A DNA stretch of 64,000 nt from Escherichia coli O127:H6 str. E2348/69 (lineage in GTDB: Bacteria; Pseudomonadota; Gammaproteobacteria; Enterobacterales; Enterobacteriaceae), in NCBI RefSeq assembly GCF_000026545.1, contig NC_011601.1. One strand, written 5' to 3'. Positions 1 through 9,338 of this stretch are shown here, piece by piece. A program made the position numbers and the translations under genes. Every line of letters starts with the position of its first letter. The stretch's first letter is position 1. A model generated the notes under the pieces. That model had not been told where the DNA came from and searched no databases. It saw only the letters and a program-made list of their open reading frames with translations.

Positions 1-619
1 GACACCTATTCACAACAAGTTTATTGCTGCACTTGTTGTAGAGAGTATTTGTAAAAACATTTTATGTCGCTAAATAACATGACGATTTCATTATGCATGT
101 TATTTATAAACAGCGACTAAACAGAATATTATTGCGAACAAGGGAAGTGTCAGGAAAGGTCAAGAGGTACTAATAGTTTATATGGCTATAAACATTAGCT
201 ATGGTTAATGTTTGCCTGGTGAAACTAACACCAAATTGCTGTAACCCTCTTTGAATCATAAACTGAAGGATGATGCAGCACAGTTCCTCGCGGACTATCC
301 TGGCTACTACATGACCAAACGCGGATATCATCCTCAAGCAGTCAACTCTGGCAATCTTTTTACTCAGCTATGAGGACCTGATCGTCGACTTTGCCATCTG
401 CATGATGAATCTCCTCAGCAGCAGATGCAGTATTTACCGAAATGAATCCCATGAATAATGCAGTAATTAGTAGTGCTTTCATATCTGATGCCTGTTTTAA
501 ACGATATATTTGGAAGTTGACGAATATCGGAAGGAGCTTCCTCCTTCTTGATCTGTAAATATACAGTTCTAAGCTGTCATAAGACTGACTGTCATATGAC
601 AACGTTGTCAGATTTTTGA

Positions 620-910
<291 letters not shown>

Positions 911-1258
911 TGAATCTAGTTCATAAGATAAATCCGTAACACTCACTTGTTTTAACTTAATATTTTTAATAAAAAGATTAAGTTACTTCCAAATAGCTTC
1001 ATGAACTAGCTAAGAATGCGCTTCATCCAAGGCCTCCTGAAGGCGTTCGGGGATACAATTTAGGGAAGCCTCGAAATGTTGCTGCTCAGCAGCTTTTTCC
1101 ATCCAGTCCCGAAACTAGTTAGGGGTTACTCCATACATTGTTAAATGTCAAAATATTGATAAATGTTTTATAGATAACAGTAAGTTAGCCATATTTTTTC
1201 ATTGACCTTTCATTTGTGACGAAGCAAACTGACCTGAATAGTCGCATAGGGATGTCAT

Positions 1259-2359
1259 ATGATTCCTGAAATTGAACTTAGAGATATTCAGCCAAAGGGA
1301 AGCAGTGATGTCCCGTCGTCTTCGCACATTCAGACTGGATTACCGATTCCAAAAACAGTGCGGGTTCAGTTCTTTAGCCCTGACGAATGGGAGTCGTTTA
1401 CAGAGGAATGGGCAAGTTATCTCAAAAATGAATATGTTGCAGCCAGACGCTTTGGGGGTTCTGGTGATCTTGGGATAGATATTGCTGGTTTCTGTTCTGA
1501 CAAGGGATTCGAGGCGGTATGGGATAATTATCAATGCAAGCGCTATGGACATCCTCTTCGGCCTGGTGATATCTGGGTTGAAATTGGCAAGATTATTTAT
1601 TACTCATATCTTGGCAAATATACCCCTCCACGAAAGCATTTTTTTGTTTGCTCTCAGGGAATAGGAACCAGTCTTGAACAGTTGTTGAACAAGCCTACTG
1701 AGTTGAAAGAAAAATCGATTGAAAACTGGGATAATTACTGTCTCAAGGGTATCACTTCTACTGCTGAAATTCCGTTGACTGGTGCATTAAGAGCTTACCT
1801 CGACGCATTTGATTTCACTATTTTCTCATCAAAATCGATAGTTGAGCTTATCGAAATTCATGCCAGAACGGGTTTTCACTCGGTTCGCTTTGGCGGCGGG
1901 CTGCCGTATCGGCCTAATCCATCTTCTCCACCAACCATACCGACGGAAAATGAAAGCCGATACATTCGCCAGTTGCTTGATGCCTATGGAGACCATTTAG
2001 GCACAAATTTACCAGACGCTGCTTCGTTGGCGTCACACAATCAATTTCGTAGTGACTATCTTCGCCAGCGCGAACGTTTTTATCACGCAGAATCGCTAAA
2101 GAATTTTGCGCGAGATACTGTTCCTGCGGGGACATTTGATGCCTTACAGGATGAAATCTACCATGGCGTAATTGATGTCTGCGAAGATTATCACTTGAGT
2201 GGATTTGCGAGAATGAAAGAAACCATGAAGCACGCTACCACTATCGCTGTCACATCAAATCCGTTGGTCACTTCAATTAAAACACAAGATCGCCAAGGTA
2301 TATGCCATCAGTTGGCTAATGACGATCGCCTGATTTGGGTGCCAGATAATGAATCATAA
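1259..2359 (+). CDS. Mrr-like PD-(D/E)xK nuclease-domain protein; candidate effector (LmuA-like) of a Lamassu/ABC-3C-type defence operon
   Basis: 366-aa ORF; N-terminal motif RRFGGSGDLGIDIAG...WDNYQCKRY matches the Mrr-type restriction endonuclease catalytic signature (D..D...QxK); AGGGA 6 nt upstream of ATG; stop overlaps start of next ORF. Confidence 0.6.
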   Translation: MIPEIELRDIQPKGSSDVPSSSHIQTGLPIPKTVRVQFFSPDEWESFTEEWASYLKNEYVAARRFGGSGDLGIDIAGFCSDKGFEAVWDNYQCKRYGHPLRPGDIWVEIGKIIYYSYLGKYTPPRKHFFVCSQGIGTSLEQLLNKPTELKEKSIENWDNYCLKGITSTAEIPLTGALRAYLDAFDFTIFSSKSIVELIEIHARTGFHSVRFGGGLPYRPNPSSPPTIPTENESRYIRQLLDAYGDHLGTNLPDAASLASHNQFRSDYLRQRERFYHAESLKNFARDTVPAGTFDALQDEIYHGVIDVCEDYHLSGFARMKETMKHATTIAVTSNPLVTSIKTQDRQGICHQLANDDRLIWVPDNES

Positions 2360-2834
2360 AAAACATCCAGAGCCCTTTAATAGTCCTTTCGAAACCGGGA
2401 TACGTTCGCTTGCGATTCTGGTTGCAGCCTTCCCTGAGTCTTATGATTTGCAACGGCTAGTTGAAATGGATTATCTCGTTGTGCATTCCGGTGATGCTGA
2501 TGGTCCTGACAGTTTGCATGCCCCATTACCGATGCGTGCGGGCGAACTACTGGTCAGGCATGGTTTGATTGAAAAGGGATTGATGCTCATGATGAGCAGG
2601 GGGCTCGTCCAACGTGTTTCAGCCAGTGATGGGTTCAACTATCTTGCTGGGGAGCTCGCTGCACCTTTTATCTCTTCTCTTACGACTGAATATTCATGTC
2701 GACTAAAAGTTTGTGCTGAATGGGTAACTGGTGAATTTAAAGACCTGCCTACGCAGGAAATACGGAACATTACGCATCGCTTGTTTCAGCAGTGGTCGAG
2801 TCAGTTCCAGAGTATTCAGTCATCTGGAGGATGA
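2349..2834 (+). CDS. small protein, candidate middle component (LmuC-like) of the three-gene operon
   Basis: 161-aa ORF; ATG at 2349 overlaps the upstream stop (2357-2359) and its TGA (2832-2834) overlaps ATGATGATG of the next gene, implying translational coupling; no recognisable catalytic motif. Confidence 0.5.
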   Translation: MNHKKHPEPFNSPFETGIRSLAILVAAFPESYDLQRLVEMDYLVVHSGDADGPDSLHAPLPMRAGELLVRHGLIEKGLMLMMSRGLVQRVSASDGFNYLAGELAAPFISSLTTEYSCRLKVCAEWVTGEFKDLPTQEIRNITHRLFQQWSSQFQSIQSSGG

Positions 2835-4663
2835 TGATGAGCGATAATTATTTGCAGCTTAGAAAAATTTTGTTCCATGGCCAAACCAAAGAATCCGTTT
2901 TATCTTTTTCATCCGGTATTAATGTGATTTGTGGGGCTTCCGATACCGGCAAATCATTCCTGGCAGAAACTCTGGATTTTATGCTGGGTGGAACGGAGCT
3001 CAGGGAAATTACAGAATTAGCTGCTTATGCAGAAATAACTCTCGATTTTGTCACCAGTGATGGTCGAAGTTGGCGTCTTCAACGTGCAGTGACTGGCGGG
3101 AATTTCAAGTTAACTGATTTGGATGAGCCAGACTCGGAACCTATCGTGCTAAAACAGAAGTACGTTCGGGGTAAAACGGATAATATCTCCAGTTTTTTAC
3201 TTGAACAGATTGGCTTGCCGAATAAGGAGATTTTGAAAAGTAGTACCAAAGCGACGACTCAGGGACTGAGCTTCCGCAATCTGGCGAGACTTGCTCTGGT
3301 TCAGGAAGATGAAATTCAGCATAAAGGCTCTCCCTTTTGGAGTGGGCAGTTCACAACCAAAACCGCTGAACTGGCAACGGTCAAACTGCTGCTGACAGGG
3401 GGTGATGATTCTGCGGTCGTTGCAGTGAGTGGCGATGGTGTAAGCAATACGTCTCAGATTATGTTGATTGATGAGTTAATTGCGGAGTTATCCATTGAAA
3501 TTAAGGATATGGGAGAAGAGCGTGATGATCTGGCTTCCCAACTGACCCGCCTTGAACAATCTATTGAGAGTCAACGTGAATCGCTCACTGCCGCACAGCA
3601 GCAACTAGAGCAGTTATTACAACAAAGGGGACTGGCCTTTGATGAGCGAAACAAAATCCAGGGACGACTGGATGAGATATCCGAACTACTTGCCAGATTT
3701 ACACTTCTGAATGAGCATTATGTTATAGATATCAACCGTCTGAAATCCATTCAGGAGTGTGGCTTGCTCTTCATGCATATTGACGTGATTCCTTGCCCTC
3801 ATTGTGGAGCTAGTCCAGCTCACCAACACCTGGAACAAATATGTGATGGAGATGTAGATTCAATCATTACTTCAGCAACTGCCGAGATGCAAAAGACCGA
3901 ACGACTTTTGGCAGAGCTGAATTGTACAGTCAGAGATCTTGTCAGCGAAAAGCAACGCCTTGAGAAGCAATACATTGTCCATGAAGAGGATTATTTGCGT
4001 CTTGATAAAGCCATTCGGGAAACTATTGCTCCTGAAGTTGACAGTTTCAGGCACTCGTATGCTGAACTGATCGACGAACGGGCCAGTGTCCAGCAATCTA
4101 TTGATTTGTTCTCAAGATTGGACCGGCTGGAAAGCAGGAAAGTGGCATTACAAAGCGATACTCCGGTAAAAAAAGAAAAAAGTGCGGTGCAAAACGGCAT
4201 TCCAGAGTCTGTTGCCCATAGTCTGTCGTTAAAAATCTCCTCTATATTAAAAGACTGGCATTTCCCCGGAGCATGCCAGGTATTTTTTGACAAAGATACT
4301 TCGGATTTTGTAATTGATGGAAAACCTCGCGGTAGCCGGGGAAAGGGGCTACGAGCAATTACCCATGCGGCAGTCAGTGTCGGACTACTTGAGTTTTGCC
4401 AAGAAAATGGGCTATCGCATCCGGGATTCCTAGTTCTGGATTCCCCTCTACTGGCTTACTACAAACCAGAAGGTGAAGATGATGTAGCTTTGCAAGGTAC
4501 TGACTTGAAAGAGAAATTCTATGATTATCTTGTGAAGCACCATAATGAAGATAGTCAGATCCTTATTATAGAAAATCCGCATCCACCGCAAAGCATGAAT
4601 AAACAGATTACTATGACGGTATTCACTGGTAATCCTAGGGTTGGCCGTTTCGGATTGCTTTGA
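2831..4663 (+). CDS. SMC/Rad50-like ABC ATPase with central coiled-coil and CxxC hook (LmuB-like)
   Basis: N-terminal Walker A GASDTGKS (nt 2933-2956); long heptad-rich, Q/E/L-rich central region containing CPHC (nt 3794-3805); C-terminal hhhhD motif FLVLDSP (nt 4427-4447); GGAGG at 2826-2830; start chosen among ATG 2831/2834/2837 (track ORF begins 2792). Confidence 0.65.
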   Translation: MMMSDNYLQLRKILFHGQTKESVLSFSSGINVICGASDTGKSFLAETLDFMLGGTELREITELAAYAEITLDFVTSDGRSWRLQRAVTGGNFKLTDLDEPDSEPIVLKQKYVRGKTDNISSFLLEQIGLPNKEILKSSTKATTQGLSFRNLARLALVQEDEIQHKGSPFWSGQFTTKTAELATVKLLLTGGDDSAVVAVSGDGVSNTSQIMLIDELIAELSIEIKDMGEERDDLASQLTRLEQSIESQRESLTAAQQQLEQLLQQRGLAFDERNKIQGRLDEISELLARFTLLNEHYVIDINRLKSIQECGLLFMHIDVIPCPHCGASPAHQHLEQICDGDVDSIITSATAEMQKTERLLAELNCTVRDLVSEKQRLEKQYIVHEEDYLRLDKAIRETIAPEVDSFRHSYAELIDERASVQQSIDLFSRLDRLESRKVALQSDTPVKKEKSAVQNGIPESVAHSLSLKISSILKDWHFPGACQVFFDKDTSDFVIDGKPRGSRGKGLRAITHAAVSVGLLEFCQENGLSHPGFLVLDSPLLAYYKPEGEDDVALQGTDLKEKFYDYLVKHHNEDSQILIIENPHPPQSMNKQITMTVFTGNPRVGRFGLL

Positions 4664-4830
4664 TTAGGAGGATGGTTTGAATGGAAACACAATGCACAAT
4701 GTCGTGCAGTTGTTGCTGCGCACAATGGTCGTTTATGGACGAAGTTATCACTTCAGTCAAAAGAATTTTAAGTAGCTAAGCTGCGCGTTGGATAGGTAAT
4801 GAAATGACATAAACAGATATTATAGCGACC

Positions 4831-5292
4831 GTGGCATGTGCCATATCAGGGGTCGCCGCGCTATTTTCAGGAATAGCATTATGTCAATCAGCAAAAGCAA
4901 ACCGCAGAGCAAATCAGGTATCAGAGCGAGGCTTGCGTATTGATTTAGTTGATTGTCGTATGAATATACGGAATGCGTTCACGTTAATTATGGATGAGTT
5001 CGAGGCGCAGAGATACGGGCCAGCAGATAACTATATTATTCAGGCAAAAATCACCTTCCGTGATGCGGGTATATTTTTTGGTAATGACGTAAGTGAATTT
5101 CTTACCGAGTTAATGAGACAAATTAGCACCTACAGCGAGATATTTAAAACTAGGACAATGGGCCGTCTTATTTTTGACCCTCAAGGAGATGTTAGAGAGG
5201 AAGAGCAACGATTAGAACAAATAAGGCTATGGGTGATAGCACAGCGTGGGCCCGGCAATGACATGTTCGACAGAATCATGAGTGTTTCATGA
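4831..5292 (+). CDS. hypothetical protein, N-terminal hydrophobic segment; start uncertain (GTG at 4831 or internal ATG)
   Basis: 153-aa ORF with AT-rich rare codons (ata, aga, tta), followed immediately by a stem-loop plus T-tract; no motif recognised. Confidence 0.35.
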   Translation: MACAISGVAALFSGIALCQSAKANRRANQVSERGLRIDLVDCRMNIRNAFTLIMDEFEAQRYGPADNYIIQAKITFRDAGIFFGNDVSEFLTELMRQISTYSEIFKTRTMGRLIFDPQGDVREEEQRLEQIRLWVIAQRGPGNDMFDRIMSVS

Positions 5293-5302
5293 TACACGCT
5301 AG

Positions 5303-5332
5303 ACCCGGCCTCAGTGCCGGGTGTTTAATTTT
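5303..5332 (+). terminator. Rho-independent terminator-like hairpin downstream of the 153-aa ORF
   Basis: acccggc-ctcagt-gccgggt stem-loop followed by gtttaatttt. Confidence 0.45.
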
Positions 5333-5569
5333 CCTAACTACAACCGTCGCCTCACCGTCCCCCAAACGAATCGGAACAGCTGTTCCATGAACAGTCAGAT
5401 GGTGTGGCCCAAATTAGTTGCCCACTACACTTCAAGACTATAAATTCTGGAGTAACAGTCGGTTAGCTTCCTTCATGGGCCAGTCATGGCGAGTTGTTAA
5501 GTATGGCTGTTTGCGATAAGCTTTAGATACTCTTTAGCGTTGGACGGTTACGTCTAGTCGGGTGATTAG

Positions 5570-6607
<1,038 letters not shown>

Positions 6608-6681
6608 AAACCAAGGGAGAATCCAGTCGTTGGCGGTTCATGGATTGTTCTGCTCATTAACAACGACCAAAACCCCATATC

Positions 6682-8004
6682 TTACTTAATACCGTATTCT
6701 CGGCTTAACCGACCGTGCAACCTCAACACATTGGTTTCAACTGCCGTCACCACGTTCTCCGGAAAATCTGTCGGTAATGAAGTCTTCACGTTATCCAGTG
6801 CTGCCGGAATCATTCTGGCAAAGTCACTCAGGATTTCATGCATCTGCACTTCCGGGAATTTCAGCACCTTTGCTGTCGCCAGAAAATGTCGCGGATAAAT
6901 TTTATCGATTGCCGTTTTTTTGCCTTTGGATGCGTTAAGCCCCATTGCCAGTTTGAGATCGCTGATGTGTATTCCCGTACCGCCAAGGACCGGAAATGCC
7001 GAAATGATGTCATAAAATGGTGTGAGCCGATAACTGCCGCCAGCCTGAATAAATACGGAGAAGTTTTTTGCATGGCCATCCGTTGCGCCAATCAACCACT
7101 GGAAGACCTGAAACTTCATAAAATCATAGCGATCTTTCAGCGCCTCGCTGGAGCCCATCAAAAAAGCCATAATTTGCGCGATACCGGGGCCTCCATCTGA
7201 TTCATATTTCACCGATGAAGGTAAACCGAATGTCTGGCACATATCCTCCTGTGGCAAGCGAAGTAAAACCGTTCGCTCAGTATTCCAACGCCTGTCAAAA
7301 CGTTCGACCGCTAACGCGCGCACCCTTCCCGCTTTAATGATTTCTGCGTCCGGAACATTCAACCCGAGTTCTTTCGCCAGCAGCAAACAGTAATACTCAT
7401 TATCAACGCTTTGGCTAAGATCGAGCGTCGCATTGGGCTGTCTGATTTCGCCAATCGGCAATTTGATAATGTGCGTCGTTGGCGTTATTCCCTTCGGAAT
7501 GCACCAGTCATTGCCTATTCTGAGCAGCGCAGTCTTCTCCTGTGCGCCAGCAACCGAGATGCGAAAGTCATTTTCTTCTCTAATCATGCCTAACGGGATA
7601 TCTGCTTTATAAGCCGTTAATACTTCTTCAAGTCTGGCTTCAGTAAGCTTTTCCCATGCCATTATCGGACACGTTACGGTTTCATCTTCGGGGATTAACG
7701 TCACGGCACCAACGCTGTCTCGCCCTATTTCTGACAATAAATCAAACGGTTGTCTGGATTTAGCATGATAACGTTTAACGATCCGGTCACGTACAATCGG
7801 GCTATCGGGTAACAGGTTATCGAAGAAGTTAAATACGGCATCAGAGGTGATATTCCCCCTCTGCAATGGCAGCGAAAGTGACAACGGTCTGGCATAACGG
7901 CTGGCTAACCACTCAGGTGCATACTTAAAGGTGTGCGCGCCGTTGGCTAACTTCGTTAACTCGCCTACCCGCTGGTTGTTCATCCAAGTGACTAGTTTAG
8001 GCAT
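6682..8004 (-). CDS. hipA: HipA serine/threonine kinase toxin
   Basis: 440-aa protein beginning MPKLVTWMNNQRVGELTKLANGAHTF, near-identical to remembered E. coli HipA; start overlaps hipB stop. Confidence 0.95.
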   Translation of the reverse strand: MPKLVTWMNNQRVGELTKLANGAHTFKYAPEWLASRYARPLSLSLPLQRGNITSDAVFNFFDNLLPDSPIVRDRIVKRYHAKSRQPFDLLSEIGRDSVGAVTLIPEDETVTCPIMAWEKLTEARLEEVLTAYKADIPLGMIREENDFRISVAGAQEKTALLRIGNDWCIPKGITPTTHIIKLPIGEIRQPNATLDLSQSVDNEYYCLLLAKELGLNVPDAEIIKAGRVRALAVERFDRRWNTERTVLLRLPQEDMCQTFGLPSSVKYESDGGPGIAQIMAFLMGSSEALKDRYDFMKFQVFQWLIGATDGHAKNFSVFIQAGGSYRLTPFYDIISAFPVLGGTGIHISDLKLAMGLNASKGKKTAIDKIYPRHFLATAKVLKFPEVQMHEILSDFARMIPAALDNVKTSLPTDFPENVVTAVETNVLRLHGRLSREYGIK

Positions 8005-8270
8005 CACCACTCCAGATCTTGCTGTTCTGTTGCTTCTGGCGAGGCATTTTTTGCGTCGCATAGCGTCATTGAGAGTTCAAGCGACTGTAAAATCTTAAAA
8101 AATGTCGTGAGCGAGGTATTGTCAGGATTGTTTTCGAAATTGGAAATTGTCGCCTGCTTAATGCCGATTTTTTTCGCCAACTCGCTCTGCGTCCAGCCGT
8201 TTTGCTGGCGAACCAGTTTCATTGCATTCGCCAATTGCATTGGGCTATAGATCTTCTGAAAGCTCATCAT
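8004..8270 (-). CDS. hipB: HipB antitoxin, HTH DNA-binding protein
   Basis: 88-aa protein MMSFQKIYSP...QSELAKKIGIKQATISNFEN matching HipB. Confidence 0.95.
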   Translation of the reverse strand: MMSFQKIYSPMQLANAMKLVRQQNGWTQSELAKKIGIKQATISNFENNPDNTSLTTFFKILQSLELSMTLCDAKNASPEATEQQDLEW

Positions 8271-8291
8271 GTCATACGTCCACAGCAAATT

Positions 8292-8404
8292 TATCCGCTT
8301 AAGGGGATATTATCAGTTTTATCCTTAGTGAGGATAAAGTCAATCTGGAAACACATCTTATCCGCTCTACGGGATAAACGCTGCGATATCCGCGATCGCG
8401 GATA
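8292..8404 (-). promoter_or_regulatory. hipBA promoter/operator region with four HipB operator palindromes
   Basis: TATCC-N8-GGATA-type palindromes at 8292-8309, 8320-8336 (imperfect), 8359-8376 and 8387-8404, directly upstream of hipB. Confidence 0.7.
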
Positions 8405-8576
8405 AAAAGGAGGATTTAAAAAAGCACATCCTAATGCGGTGGCTTCTTTGACTACCGGAATCTGTAATCTTAATGACCTGGCCGCGTAAAAAACGTCTGT
8501 TCAATGGGGTGATGCCGTGAGGCGAATTTATCAGTTTTATCTACAATTGGGGTAACGCGCTGACGGGAGTAAAAAA

Positions 8577-9335
8577 ATGTCTGACTGGAACCCCTCTTTA
8601 TATCTGCACTTTGCCGCTGAACGATCGCGTCCGGCAGTGGAGCTGCTTGCCAGGGTGCCGCTGGAGAATATCGAATACATTGCCGATCTTGGCTGTGGCC
8701 CAGGTAACAGCACCGCCCTTCTACACCAACGTTGGCCTGCTGCCAGGATAACGGGCATCGACTCATCTCCGGCGATGATTGCTGAAGCGCGCAGTGCTTT
8801 GCCAGACTGCCTGTTTGTGGAAGCAGATATCCGCAACTGGCAACCGGAACAGGCACTCGATCTGATTTTTGCTAATGCCTCGCTGCAATGGCTGCCCGAC
8901 CACTACGAATTGTTTCCTCATTTGGTTTCGTTACTCAGTCCGCTGGGCGTGCTGGCAGTACAGATGCCAGATAACTGGCTGGAGCCGACCCATGTGCTCA
9001 TGCGCGAAGTTGCCTGGGAACAAAACTACCCGGATCGCGGGCGTGAGCCGCTGGCTGGCGTTCATGCTTACTACGATATTCTGAGTGAAGCCGGATGTGA
9101 GGTCGATATCTGGCGAACCACTTACTATCACCAGATGCCGTCGCACCAGGCGATTATCGATTGGGTGACCGCCACTGGATTACGTCCGTGGTTACAGGAT
9201 CTGACCGAGAGCGAACAGCAGCATTTTCTTACGCGCTACCATCAGATGCTGGAAGAGCAATATCCCCTCCAGGAGAACGGACAGATATTGCTGGCATTTC
9301 CGCGTCTGTTTATTGTTGCCCGCCGTAGGGAGTAA
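8577..9335 (+). CDS. tam: trans-aconitate 2-methyltransferase
   Basis: 252-aa protein [12 protein letters not shown]...[10 protein letters not shown] (SAM-binding motif) matching Tam. Confidence 0.95.
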
Positions 9336-9338
9336 TTA

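Follow-up and report, generated by a model that had tools for sequence, protein, structure and literature searches.

Two Lamassu-family systems in which the effector LmuA was labelled 'Mrr nuclease', SG107 and SG108, have been reported (Millman et al., 2022; bioRxiv 10.1101/2022.05.11.491447). SG108, from Escherichia coli O150:H5 SE15, comprises an Mrr nuclease LmuA, a wHTH LmuC and an SMC LmuB and was marked as defending, under the name 'Lamassu-Mrr'; SG107, from B. cereus 172560W, gave no defence in the screen (marked 'x'). In the Lamassu systems that were tested, including that of SE15, defence was lost upon point mutation of the SMC ATPase or of the effector domain and upon deletion of lmuC, and infection at high MOI led to culture collapse, a sign of abortive infection (Millman et al., 2022). 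The activation principle is known from cryo-EM structures of V. cholerae and S. enterica Lamassu of the Cap4 type. In these, two LmuB and one LmuC hold a single LmuA, contacting only the CTD of LmuA. DNA ends or phage replication origins trigger the release of LmuA, which then forms a cyclic tetramer with paired nuclease domains and cuts DNA; the solved Lamassu nucleases cleave dsDNA. The authors of these structures argued that effector domains can be exchanged because only the CTD is contacted. A 'short Lamassu' has also been defined, with an LmuB of ~600 aa, a Walker B of the form hhhhD[Q/S/T/E] and an optional CxxC (Haudiquet et al.).

Here we report on a locus of enteropathogenic E. coli O127:H6 E2348/69 that is related to these systems. 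Within a 64-kb stretch of its chromosome (the window, to which all coordinates refer), three genes lie on one strand, overlapping or abutting:

1259-2359, plus strand: lmuA (ORF1), 366 aa, from the ORF listing; RefSeq WP_000611893.1, 'ABC-three component system protein'
2349-2834, plus strand: lmuC, middle component (MC2), 161 aa; PADLOC LmuC PDLC03871, E 1.9e-54
2837-4663 (RefSeq start), plus strand: lmuB, short SMC/Rad50-like ABC ATPase, 608 aa; PADLOC LmuB PDLC03863, E 2.3e-176
2933-2956, plus strand: LmuB Walker A, G33ASDTGKS40, by motif search
3794-3805, plus strand: LmuB zinc hook, C320PHC, the only CxxC, by motif search
4427-4444, plus strand: LmuB Walker B-like motif, F531LVLDS (residues 531-536), of the hhhhDS form, by motif search

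The order of the genes and the family membership of all three proteins were observed directly. The product of ORF1 matched PADLOC LmuA PDLC03852 over residues 23-363 (E 2e-133), and lmuC begins within lmuA, sharing 11 nt with its end. RefSeq names LmuC 'ABC-three component system middle component 2' and LmuB 'AAA family ATPase'; the latter also matched Pfam AAA_23 (E 2.3e-8), besides coiled-coil families. With a Walker A, a Walker B, a CxxC, a coiled coil and a length of 608 aa, LmuB has the features of a 'short Lamassu', and the locus as a whole has the composition of a Lamassu/ABC-3C operon, that is an effector, a middle component and an SMC/Rad50-like ATPase, with the C-terminal ABC-3C CTD of LmuA lying behind an N-terminal effector domain. 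All three proteins are related to those of the verified SE15 Lamassu SG108: LmuA at 35% identity over its full length (E 5e-67), LmuC at 42% (E 4e-39) and LmuB at 26% against the first 399 residues of SE15 LmuB, those available (E 5e-30). Matches of LmuA, LmuC and LmuB to PHROGs indicate that phage-borne relatives exist. We are confident that ORF1 encodes LmuA and that this protein serves as effector in a three-gene 'short' Lamassu (ABC-3C) of the Mrr/CTD6/MC2 sub-type, with a predicted Mrr-like endonuclease as its N-terminal half; by analogy with related systems, the mechanism would be abortive. By the same analogy, the E2348/69 locus would serve in defence against phages or plasmids through abortive infection. 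A literature search found no paper linking Lamassu with E2348/69.

The first-pass annotation of this DNA had noted a D-x-G-I-D pattern followed by Q-C-K-R-Y in ORF1 and read it as an Mrr-type catalytic core; the pattern lies where it was said to lie and with the sequence claimed, within a larger predicted domain:

1367-1663, plus strand: Mrr-like PD-(D/E)xK nuclease core (~residues 37-135), with helix 41-55, strands 61-64, 75-78 and 88-94, helix 106-117 and strand 126-131
1391-1393, plus strand: E45 codon, for a glutamate conserved in the first helix, in SPDEWE (SPSRFE in Mrr); kept in 95/96 homologues and aligned with Mrr E172
1454-1546, plus strand: the reported motif, LmuA residues 66-96, GGSGDLGIDIAGFCSDKGFEAVWDNYQCKRY, its coordinates matching exactly
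1454-1546, plus strand: layout of the motif, GGSGD70LGID74 ... YQ92C93K94RY
1466-1468, plus strand: D70 codon GAT, read from the sequence
1478-1480, plus strand: D74 codon GAT, read from the sequence
1532-1534, plus strand: Q92 codon CAA, read from the sequence
1535-1537, plus strand: C93 codon TGC, read from the sequence; invariant in 96/96 homologues
1538-1540, plus strand: K94 codon AAG, read from the sequence
1589-1591, plus strand: K111 codon, a lysine in the helix after the QCK strand; invariant in 96/96 homologues

A regular expression for this layout, G.GD.G.D-(10-30)-[QE].K, had a single match in the 64-kb window translated in all six frames, and none in 100 shuffled windows. Conservation was assessed in 96 diverse LmuA relatives (31-87% identity) drawn from a 50%-clustered library. 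Eight columns were invariant in this set (D70, G72, D74, Q92, C93, K94, K111 and F211), and E45 was retained in all relatives except one. Such conservation points to strong selection on the motif. In every one of the 96 relatives, the QxK element has Cys in the middle (C93, window 1535-1537); the EcoKMrr residue is Ala.

Direct searches did not connect LmuA with Mrr. A Pfam scan returned CTD6 only, with no Mrr_cat match at E<=10; pairwise BLASTP against EcoKMrr gave no match; searches of PDB sequences with phmmer and two profile searches found no nuclease, only chance-level matches such as AhpF and T4 gp6; and NCBIfam yielded no match for LmuA or LmuC. Since BLASTP against EcoKMrr found nothing, a profile-profile comparison was needed, and we aligned the 96-homologue LmuA alignment by hhalign with one of the EcoKMrr catalytic domain and 24 relatives. 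The two families matched with 81.5% probability (E 1.1e-5), pairing E45, D70, D74, Q92 and K94 of LmuA with E172, D199, D203, Q219 and K221 of EcoKMrr, and the segments SPDEWE, GGSGDLGIDI and YQCKRY with SPSRFE, GGTGDGGIDG and VQAKRW, respectively. The Mrr_cat profile (PF04471), proposed at the outset as a means of verification, gave a mixed outcome: it missed LmuA itself but matched 10 of the 96 relatives at E<=0.001 (best 5.7e-6) and 51 at E<=0.1. SE15 LmuA matched it over residues 49-119 (i-E 0.0021), and likewise carries CTD6. The columns of the motif also align with those of the LmuA proteins of SE15 and B. cereus 172560W.

An AlphaFold2 model of LmuA built on the 96 diverse sequences reached a mean pLDDT of 95.8 and a pTM of 0.87, and a run on a shallow alignment (63-87% identity; pLDDT 56) was set aside. 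The core of the model is alpha-beta-beta-beta-alpha-beta, D74 starting the second strand and Q92-x-K94 lying on the third. This is the placement described for the Mrr superfamily, in which an aspartate at the start of the second strand and a (Q/E)xK on the third form the metal-binding motif D...(Q/E)xK (PMC2938202). Judged from sequence, D74 is the 'PD' aspartate and Q92-x-K94 the '(D/E)xK' element. D70, D74 and K94 had together been put forward as catalytic residues; all three are in register with EcoKMrr D199, D203 and K221, and D74 and K94 are the canonical catalytic pair, whereas D70 is a residue of the conserved GD.G.D loop. For metal binding and catalysis, the residues predicted in LmuA are E45, D74, Q92 and K94. 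Because conservation, transitive Pfam matches, the hhalign comparison and the predicted fold agree, the N-terminal half of LmuA is supported as a divergent Mrr-like PD-(D/E)xK nuclease domain with an intact, conserved catalytic set, as the first reading of the motif had it. The Mrr match is nonetheless remote, lying under the Pfam thresholds for LmuA itself; with direct searches failing, the evidence for the link to Mrr consists of a moderate score in the profile-profile comparison, transitive Pfam matches that are weak, and the predicted fold. The conservation of the motif, the modelled fold and the domain architecture are themselves direct observations, from which we infer that LmuA acts as a divalent-metal-dependent DNA endonuclease.

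That LmuA falls under the Pfam Mrr_cat threshold might also be taken as a sign of a catalytically dead REase fold that binds only DNA or a partner, the toxic activity residing elsewhere, and inactive REase domains do exist in defence proteins; one of them, NA-iREase1, gave a single faint match among the 96 relatives. Yet inactivated domains show the reverse of what is seen here, where the E...D...QxK set is invariant or nearly so even among relatives with as little as 31% identity; the LmuB ATPase is the sole other enzymatic domain in the three proteins, and effector-domain mutations abolished defence in the tested Lamassu, that of SE15 among them. Since the catalytic set is invariant, we rejected an inactive fold as very unlikely. 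Some RNases, too, have PD-(D/E)xK folds, and an active LmuA nuclease could in principle have RNA (e.g. tRNA or rRNA) instead of DNA as its physiological substrate. We consider this highly improbable, given that the nearest relatives in structure and sequence, namely the Mrr superfamily, FokI, the LlaBIII nuclease and Cap4-type LmuA, are without exception DNA endonucleases and that the solved Lamassu nucleases cut dsDNA.

Beyond the nuclease core, the remaining 270 residues of ORF1 had been thought to hold no recognisable motif, which proved incorrect for most of the C-terminal half:

1886-1915, plus strand: RFGGGLPYRP segment (residues 210-219; consensus RFGGGLPxRP), between the N-terminal half and CTD6
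1952-2338, plus strand: CTD6 domain of ABC-3C systems (residues 232-360); Pfam PF20282, E 4.5e-48

CTD6 is the single significant Pfam domain in LmuA and was found in each of the 96 homologues when these were scanned individually. Its predicted roles are to bind LmuB2-LmuC and to promote oligomerisation. Within the segment that precedes it, F211 is invariant and G212 is kept in at least 90% of the 96 homologues; because a flip of the N-domain has been reported for solved LmuA, we speculate that RFGGGLPYRP may be the inter-domain hinge for such a movement.

The presence of this domain also bears on whether ORF1 could be an Mrr-like type IV restriction enzyme that acts alone and depends on DNA modification, recognising methylated DNA by itself and having no connection with its neighbour genes. 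The catalytic motif does align with EcoKMrr, and some database entries call relatives 'restriction endonuclease'. Against this, Pfam detected no Mrr_N, winged-helix or other DNA-recognition domain, CTD6 being all that is found besides the weak nuclease signal; CTD6 is present in every one of the 96 relatives, the reading frames of lmuA and lmuC overlap, and the three genes travel together on ~100 plasmids. With no recognition domain, and with CTD6 and the operon obligatory across relatives, we rejected a stand-alone enzyme as extremely improbable. LmuA is not classed here as a type IV restriction enzyme because it is without a recognition domain and its nuclease is N-terminal and fused to CTD6.

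For LmuA as a Lamassu effector, a mechanism can be proposed from the solved Cap4-CTD7-MC3 complexes and from the genetics of SE15 Lamassu-Mrr. In uninfected cells, one inactive LmuA would be sequestered through its CTD6 by an LmuB dimer and LmuC. Aberrant DNA, such as DNA ends or phage and plasmid replication intermediates, would be sensed by LmuB, and ATP-driven engagement of the LmuB heads would release LmuA. Free LmuA would then oligomerise via its CTD, pairing the nuclease domains into an active site, and the active nuclease would cut DNA indiscriminately so that the infection is aborted. The E2348/69 system would thus follow the same logic as Cap4-type Lamassu with an Mrr-like head replacing Cap4, a view supported by the solved LmuA chains being the best structural neighbours of the LmuA model. 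The stoichiometry of sequestration and the tetrameric state of the oligomer are extrapolated to Mrr-CTD6-MC2, because the solved complexes are CTD7/MC3 and the E2348/69 system is CTD6/MC2.

The three genes form part of a block that is shared with plasmids:

892-5063, plus strand: mobile Lamassu cassette, also present on IncF conjugative plasmids, by blastn against plasmid pSA186_3

In a blastn comparison of window positions 1-9000 with pSA186_3, an IncFIA conjugative plasmid carrying the cassette between iss and sopAB, one match of 4172 bp was obtained (892-5063, 99.83% identity), which ends at an IS1 in the plasmid. On the plasmid side, the block covers positions 5634-9805 of locus L004, next to iss and sopAB. 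Of 5426 complete E. coli genomes, 110 carried the block, in 114 copies of which 100 (~88%) were plasmid-borne. PLSDB has it on 51 plasmids; 43 of these are conjugative, and Klebsiella plasmids are represented, at 97.8% identity. The 367 bp of the block that precede lmuA presumably hold the promoter; a scan for consensus promoters upstream of lmuA found nothing convincing. Window 1000-5400 is identical (100%) to NZ_LT827011.1 1656213-1660613. The E2348/69 chromosome apparently acquired the same block as the IncF plasmids.

The Lamassu family is known to attack plasmids, yet the copies of this cassette in E. coli are mostly plasmid-borne. Because ~88% of these copies are on IncF-type, mostly conjugative plasmids, the Mrr/CTD6/MC2 Lamassu could be mainly a plasmid-borne weapon against competing plasmids or phages, and, because the CTD6/MC2 sub-family is without an experimental structure, the geometry of its oligomeric activation may differ from that of the Cap4/CTD7 tetramer; we regard this combined proposal as possible but doubtful. 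If the cassette is such a weapon, the plasmid that carries it would need some way of not setting it off.

The E2348/69 cassette is embedded in a decayed island, which has a fimbrial operon on one side and hipBA on the other. The GC content of the island is ~38-46%, compared with ~50% for the core genes that flank it; elsewhere the window consists of core E. coli sequence. Further features lie downstream of lmuB:

4831-5292 (RefSeq CDS 4990-5292), plus strand: small ORF directly downstream of lmuB, 100-153 aa by choice of start
5529-6061, plus strand: degraded retron, msr RNA followed by a truncated reverse transcriptase
6682-8288, minus strand: intact hipA/hipB toxin-antitoxin pair, immediately beyond the island

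Searches of PADLOC, NCBIfam and PHROGs gave no match for the small ORF. The plasmid-shared block takes in its 5' part, IS1 cutting the plasmid version at ~5063, and a terminator-like hairpin (5303-5322) lies 3' of it. The retron msr RNA at 5529-5593 matched Rfam RF00170 (79.9 bits, E 8.9e-14), whereas its reverse-transcriptase ORF stops after 158 aa, matching positions 1-123 of the 308 of PADLOC RT_I-A and scoring 114 bits against a cut-off of 235 for NCBIfam retron_St85_RT. Pseudogene fragments of bhsA and an HTH regulator are found upstream of the cassette (~390-830), and those of a site-specific integrase between the retron remnant and hipA (~6185-6575). The hipA ORF is 459 aa long, extending upstream of the RefSeq start (440 aa). 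Pseudogene fragments and low GC together suggest an old integrative defence island adjoining hipBA.

Such surroundings raise the question of whether the chromosomal copy is a silent remnant of the decayed island that contributes nothing to the strain. Fragments of bhsA, the HTH gene and the integrase flank it, as does the truncated reverse transcriptase of the retron, and the sequence preceding lmuA has no strong sigma-70 consensus. Against this, the three ORFs of the cassette are intact, the 4.2-kb block with its 367 bp upstream of lmuA is 99.83% identical to the plasmid copies, and it is 100% conserved in three E2348/69 assemblies. A silent remnant seems improbable to us.

These results assign a function to a hypothetical three-gene block of the prototype EPEC strain E2348/69, and the same assignment covers many IncF (ColV-like, iss-carrying) conjugative plasmids. 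They also provide precise residues for mutagenesis, namely D74 and K94 of LmuA and K39 of the LmuB Walker A. What is known of Lamassu is unchanged: LmuA effectors of the Mrr type have been known since 2022 and the structural basis of activation since 2025, and the E2348/69 system is a member of the already described Lamassu-Mrr kind.

Among known systems, EcoKMrr and the Mrr superfamily (Mrr_cat PF04471; MspJI, AspBHI) share the predicted catalytic core, but LmuA has neither their N-terminal DNA-recognition domain nor a direct Pfam match. Unlike in EcoKMrr, the LmuA nuclease is fused to an ABC-3C CTD, and its control would presumably come from an SMC-like sensor and not from DNA modification. 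The solved Lamassu systems (V. cholerae DdmABC and S. enterica LmuACB; PDB 9nxx, 9ny1, 9ny5, 9hqx, 9hr5 and 9uxi) combine a Cap4 nuclease with CTD7 and MC3, in contrast to the Mrr-like/CTD6/MC2 combination of E2348/69, with which they share ~11-16% identity in structural alignments. At 40% full-length identity (E 2e-96), the LmuA of B. cereus 172560W SG107 is the closest tested relative, and its WDNYQCK and GGxGDxGxD motifs are identical; the lack of defence by SG107 in the screen (Millman et al., 2022) counts against our preferred explanation. SE15 Lamassu-Mrr, for which abortive-infection defence has been demonstrated, represents a different sub-clade at 26-42% identity. It nonetheless resembles the E2348/69 system in its lmuA-lmuC-lmuB gene order, in an LmuA that combines a weak Mrr_cat signal with CTD6, in the motif GG(A/S)GD.G.D...YQCK(H/R)Y and in a short LmuB with one CxxC.
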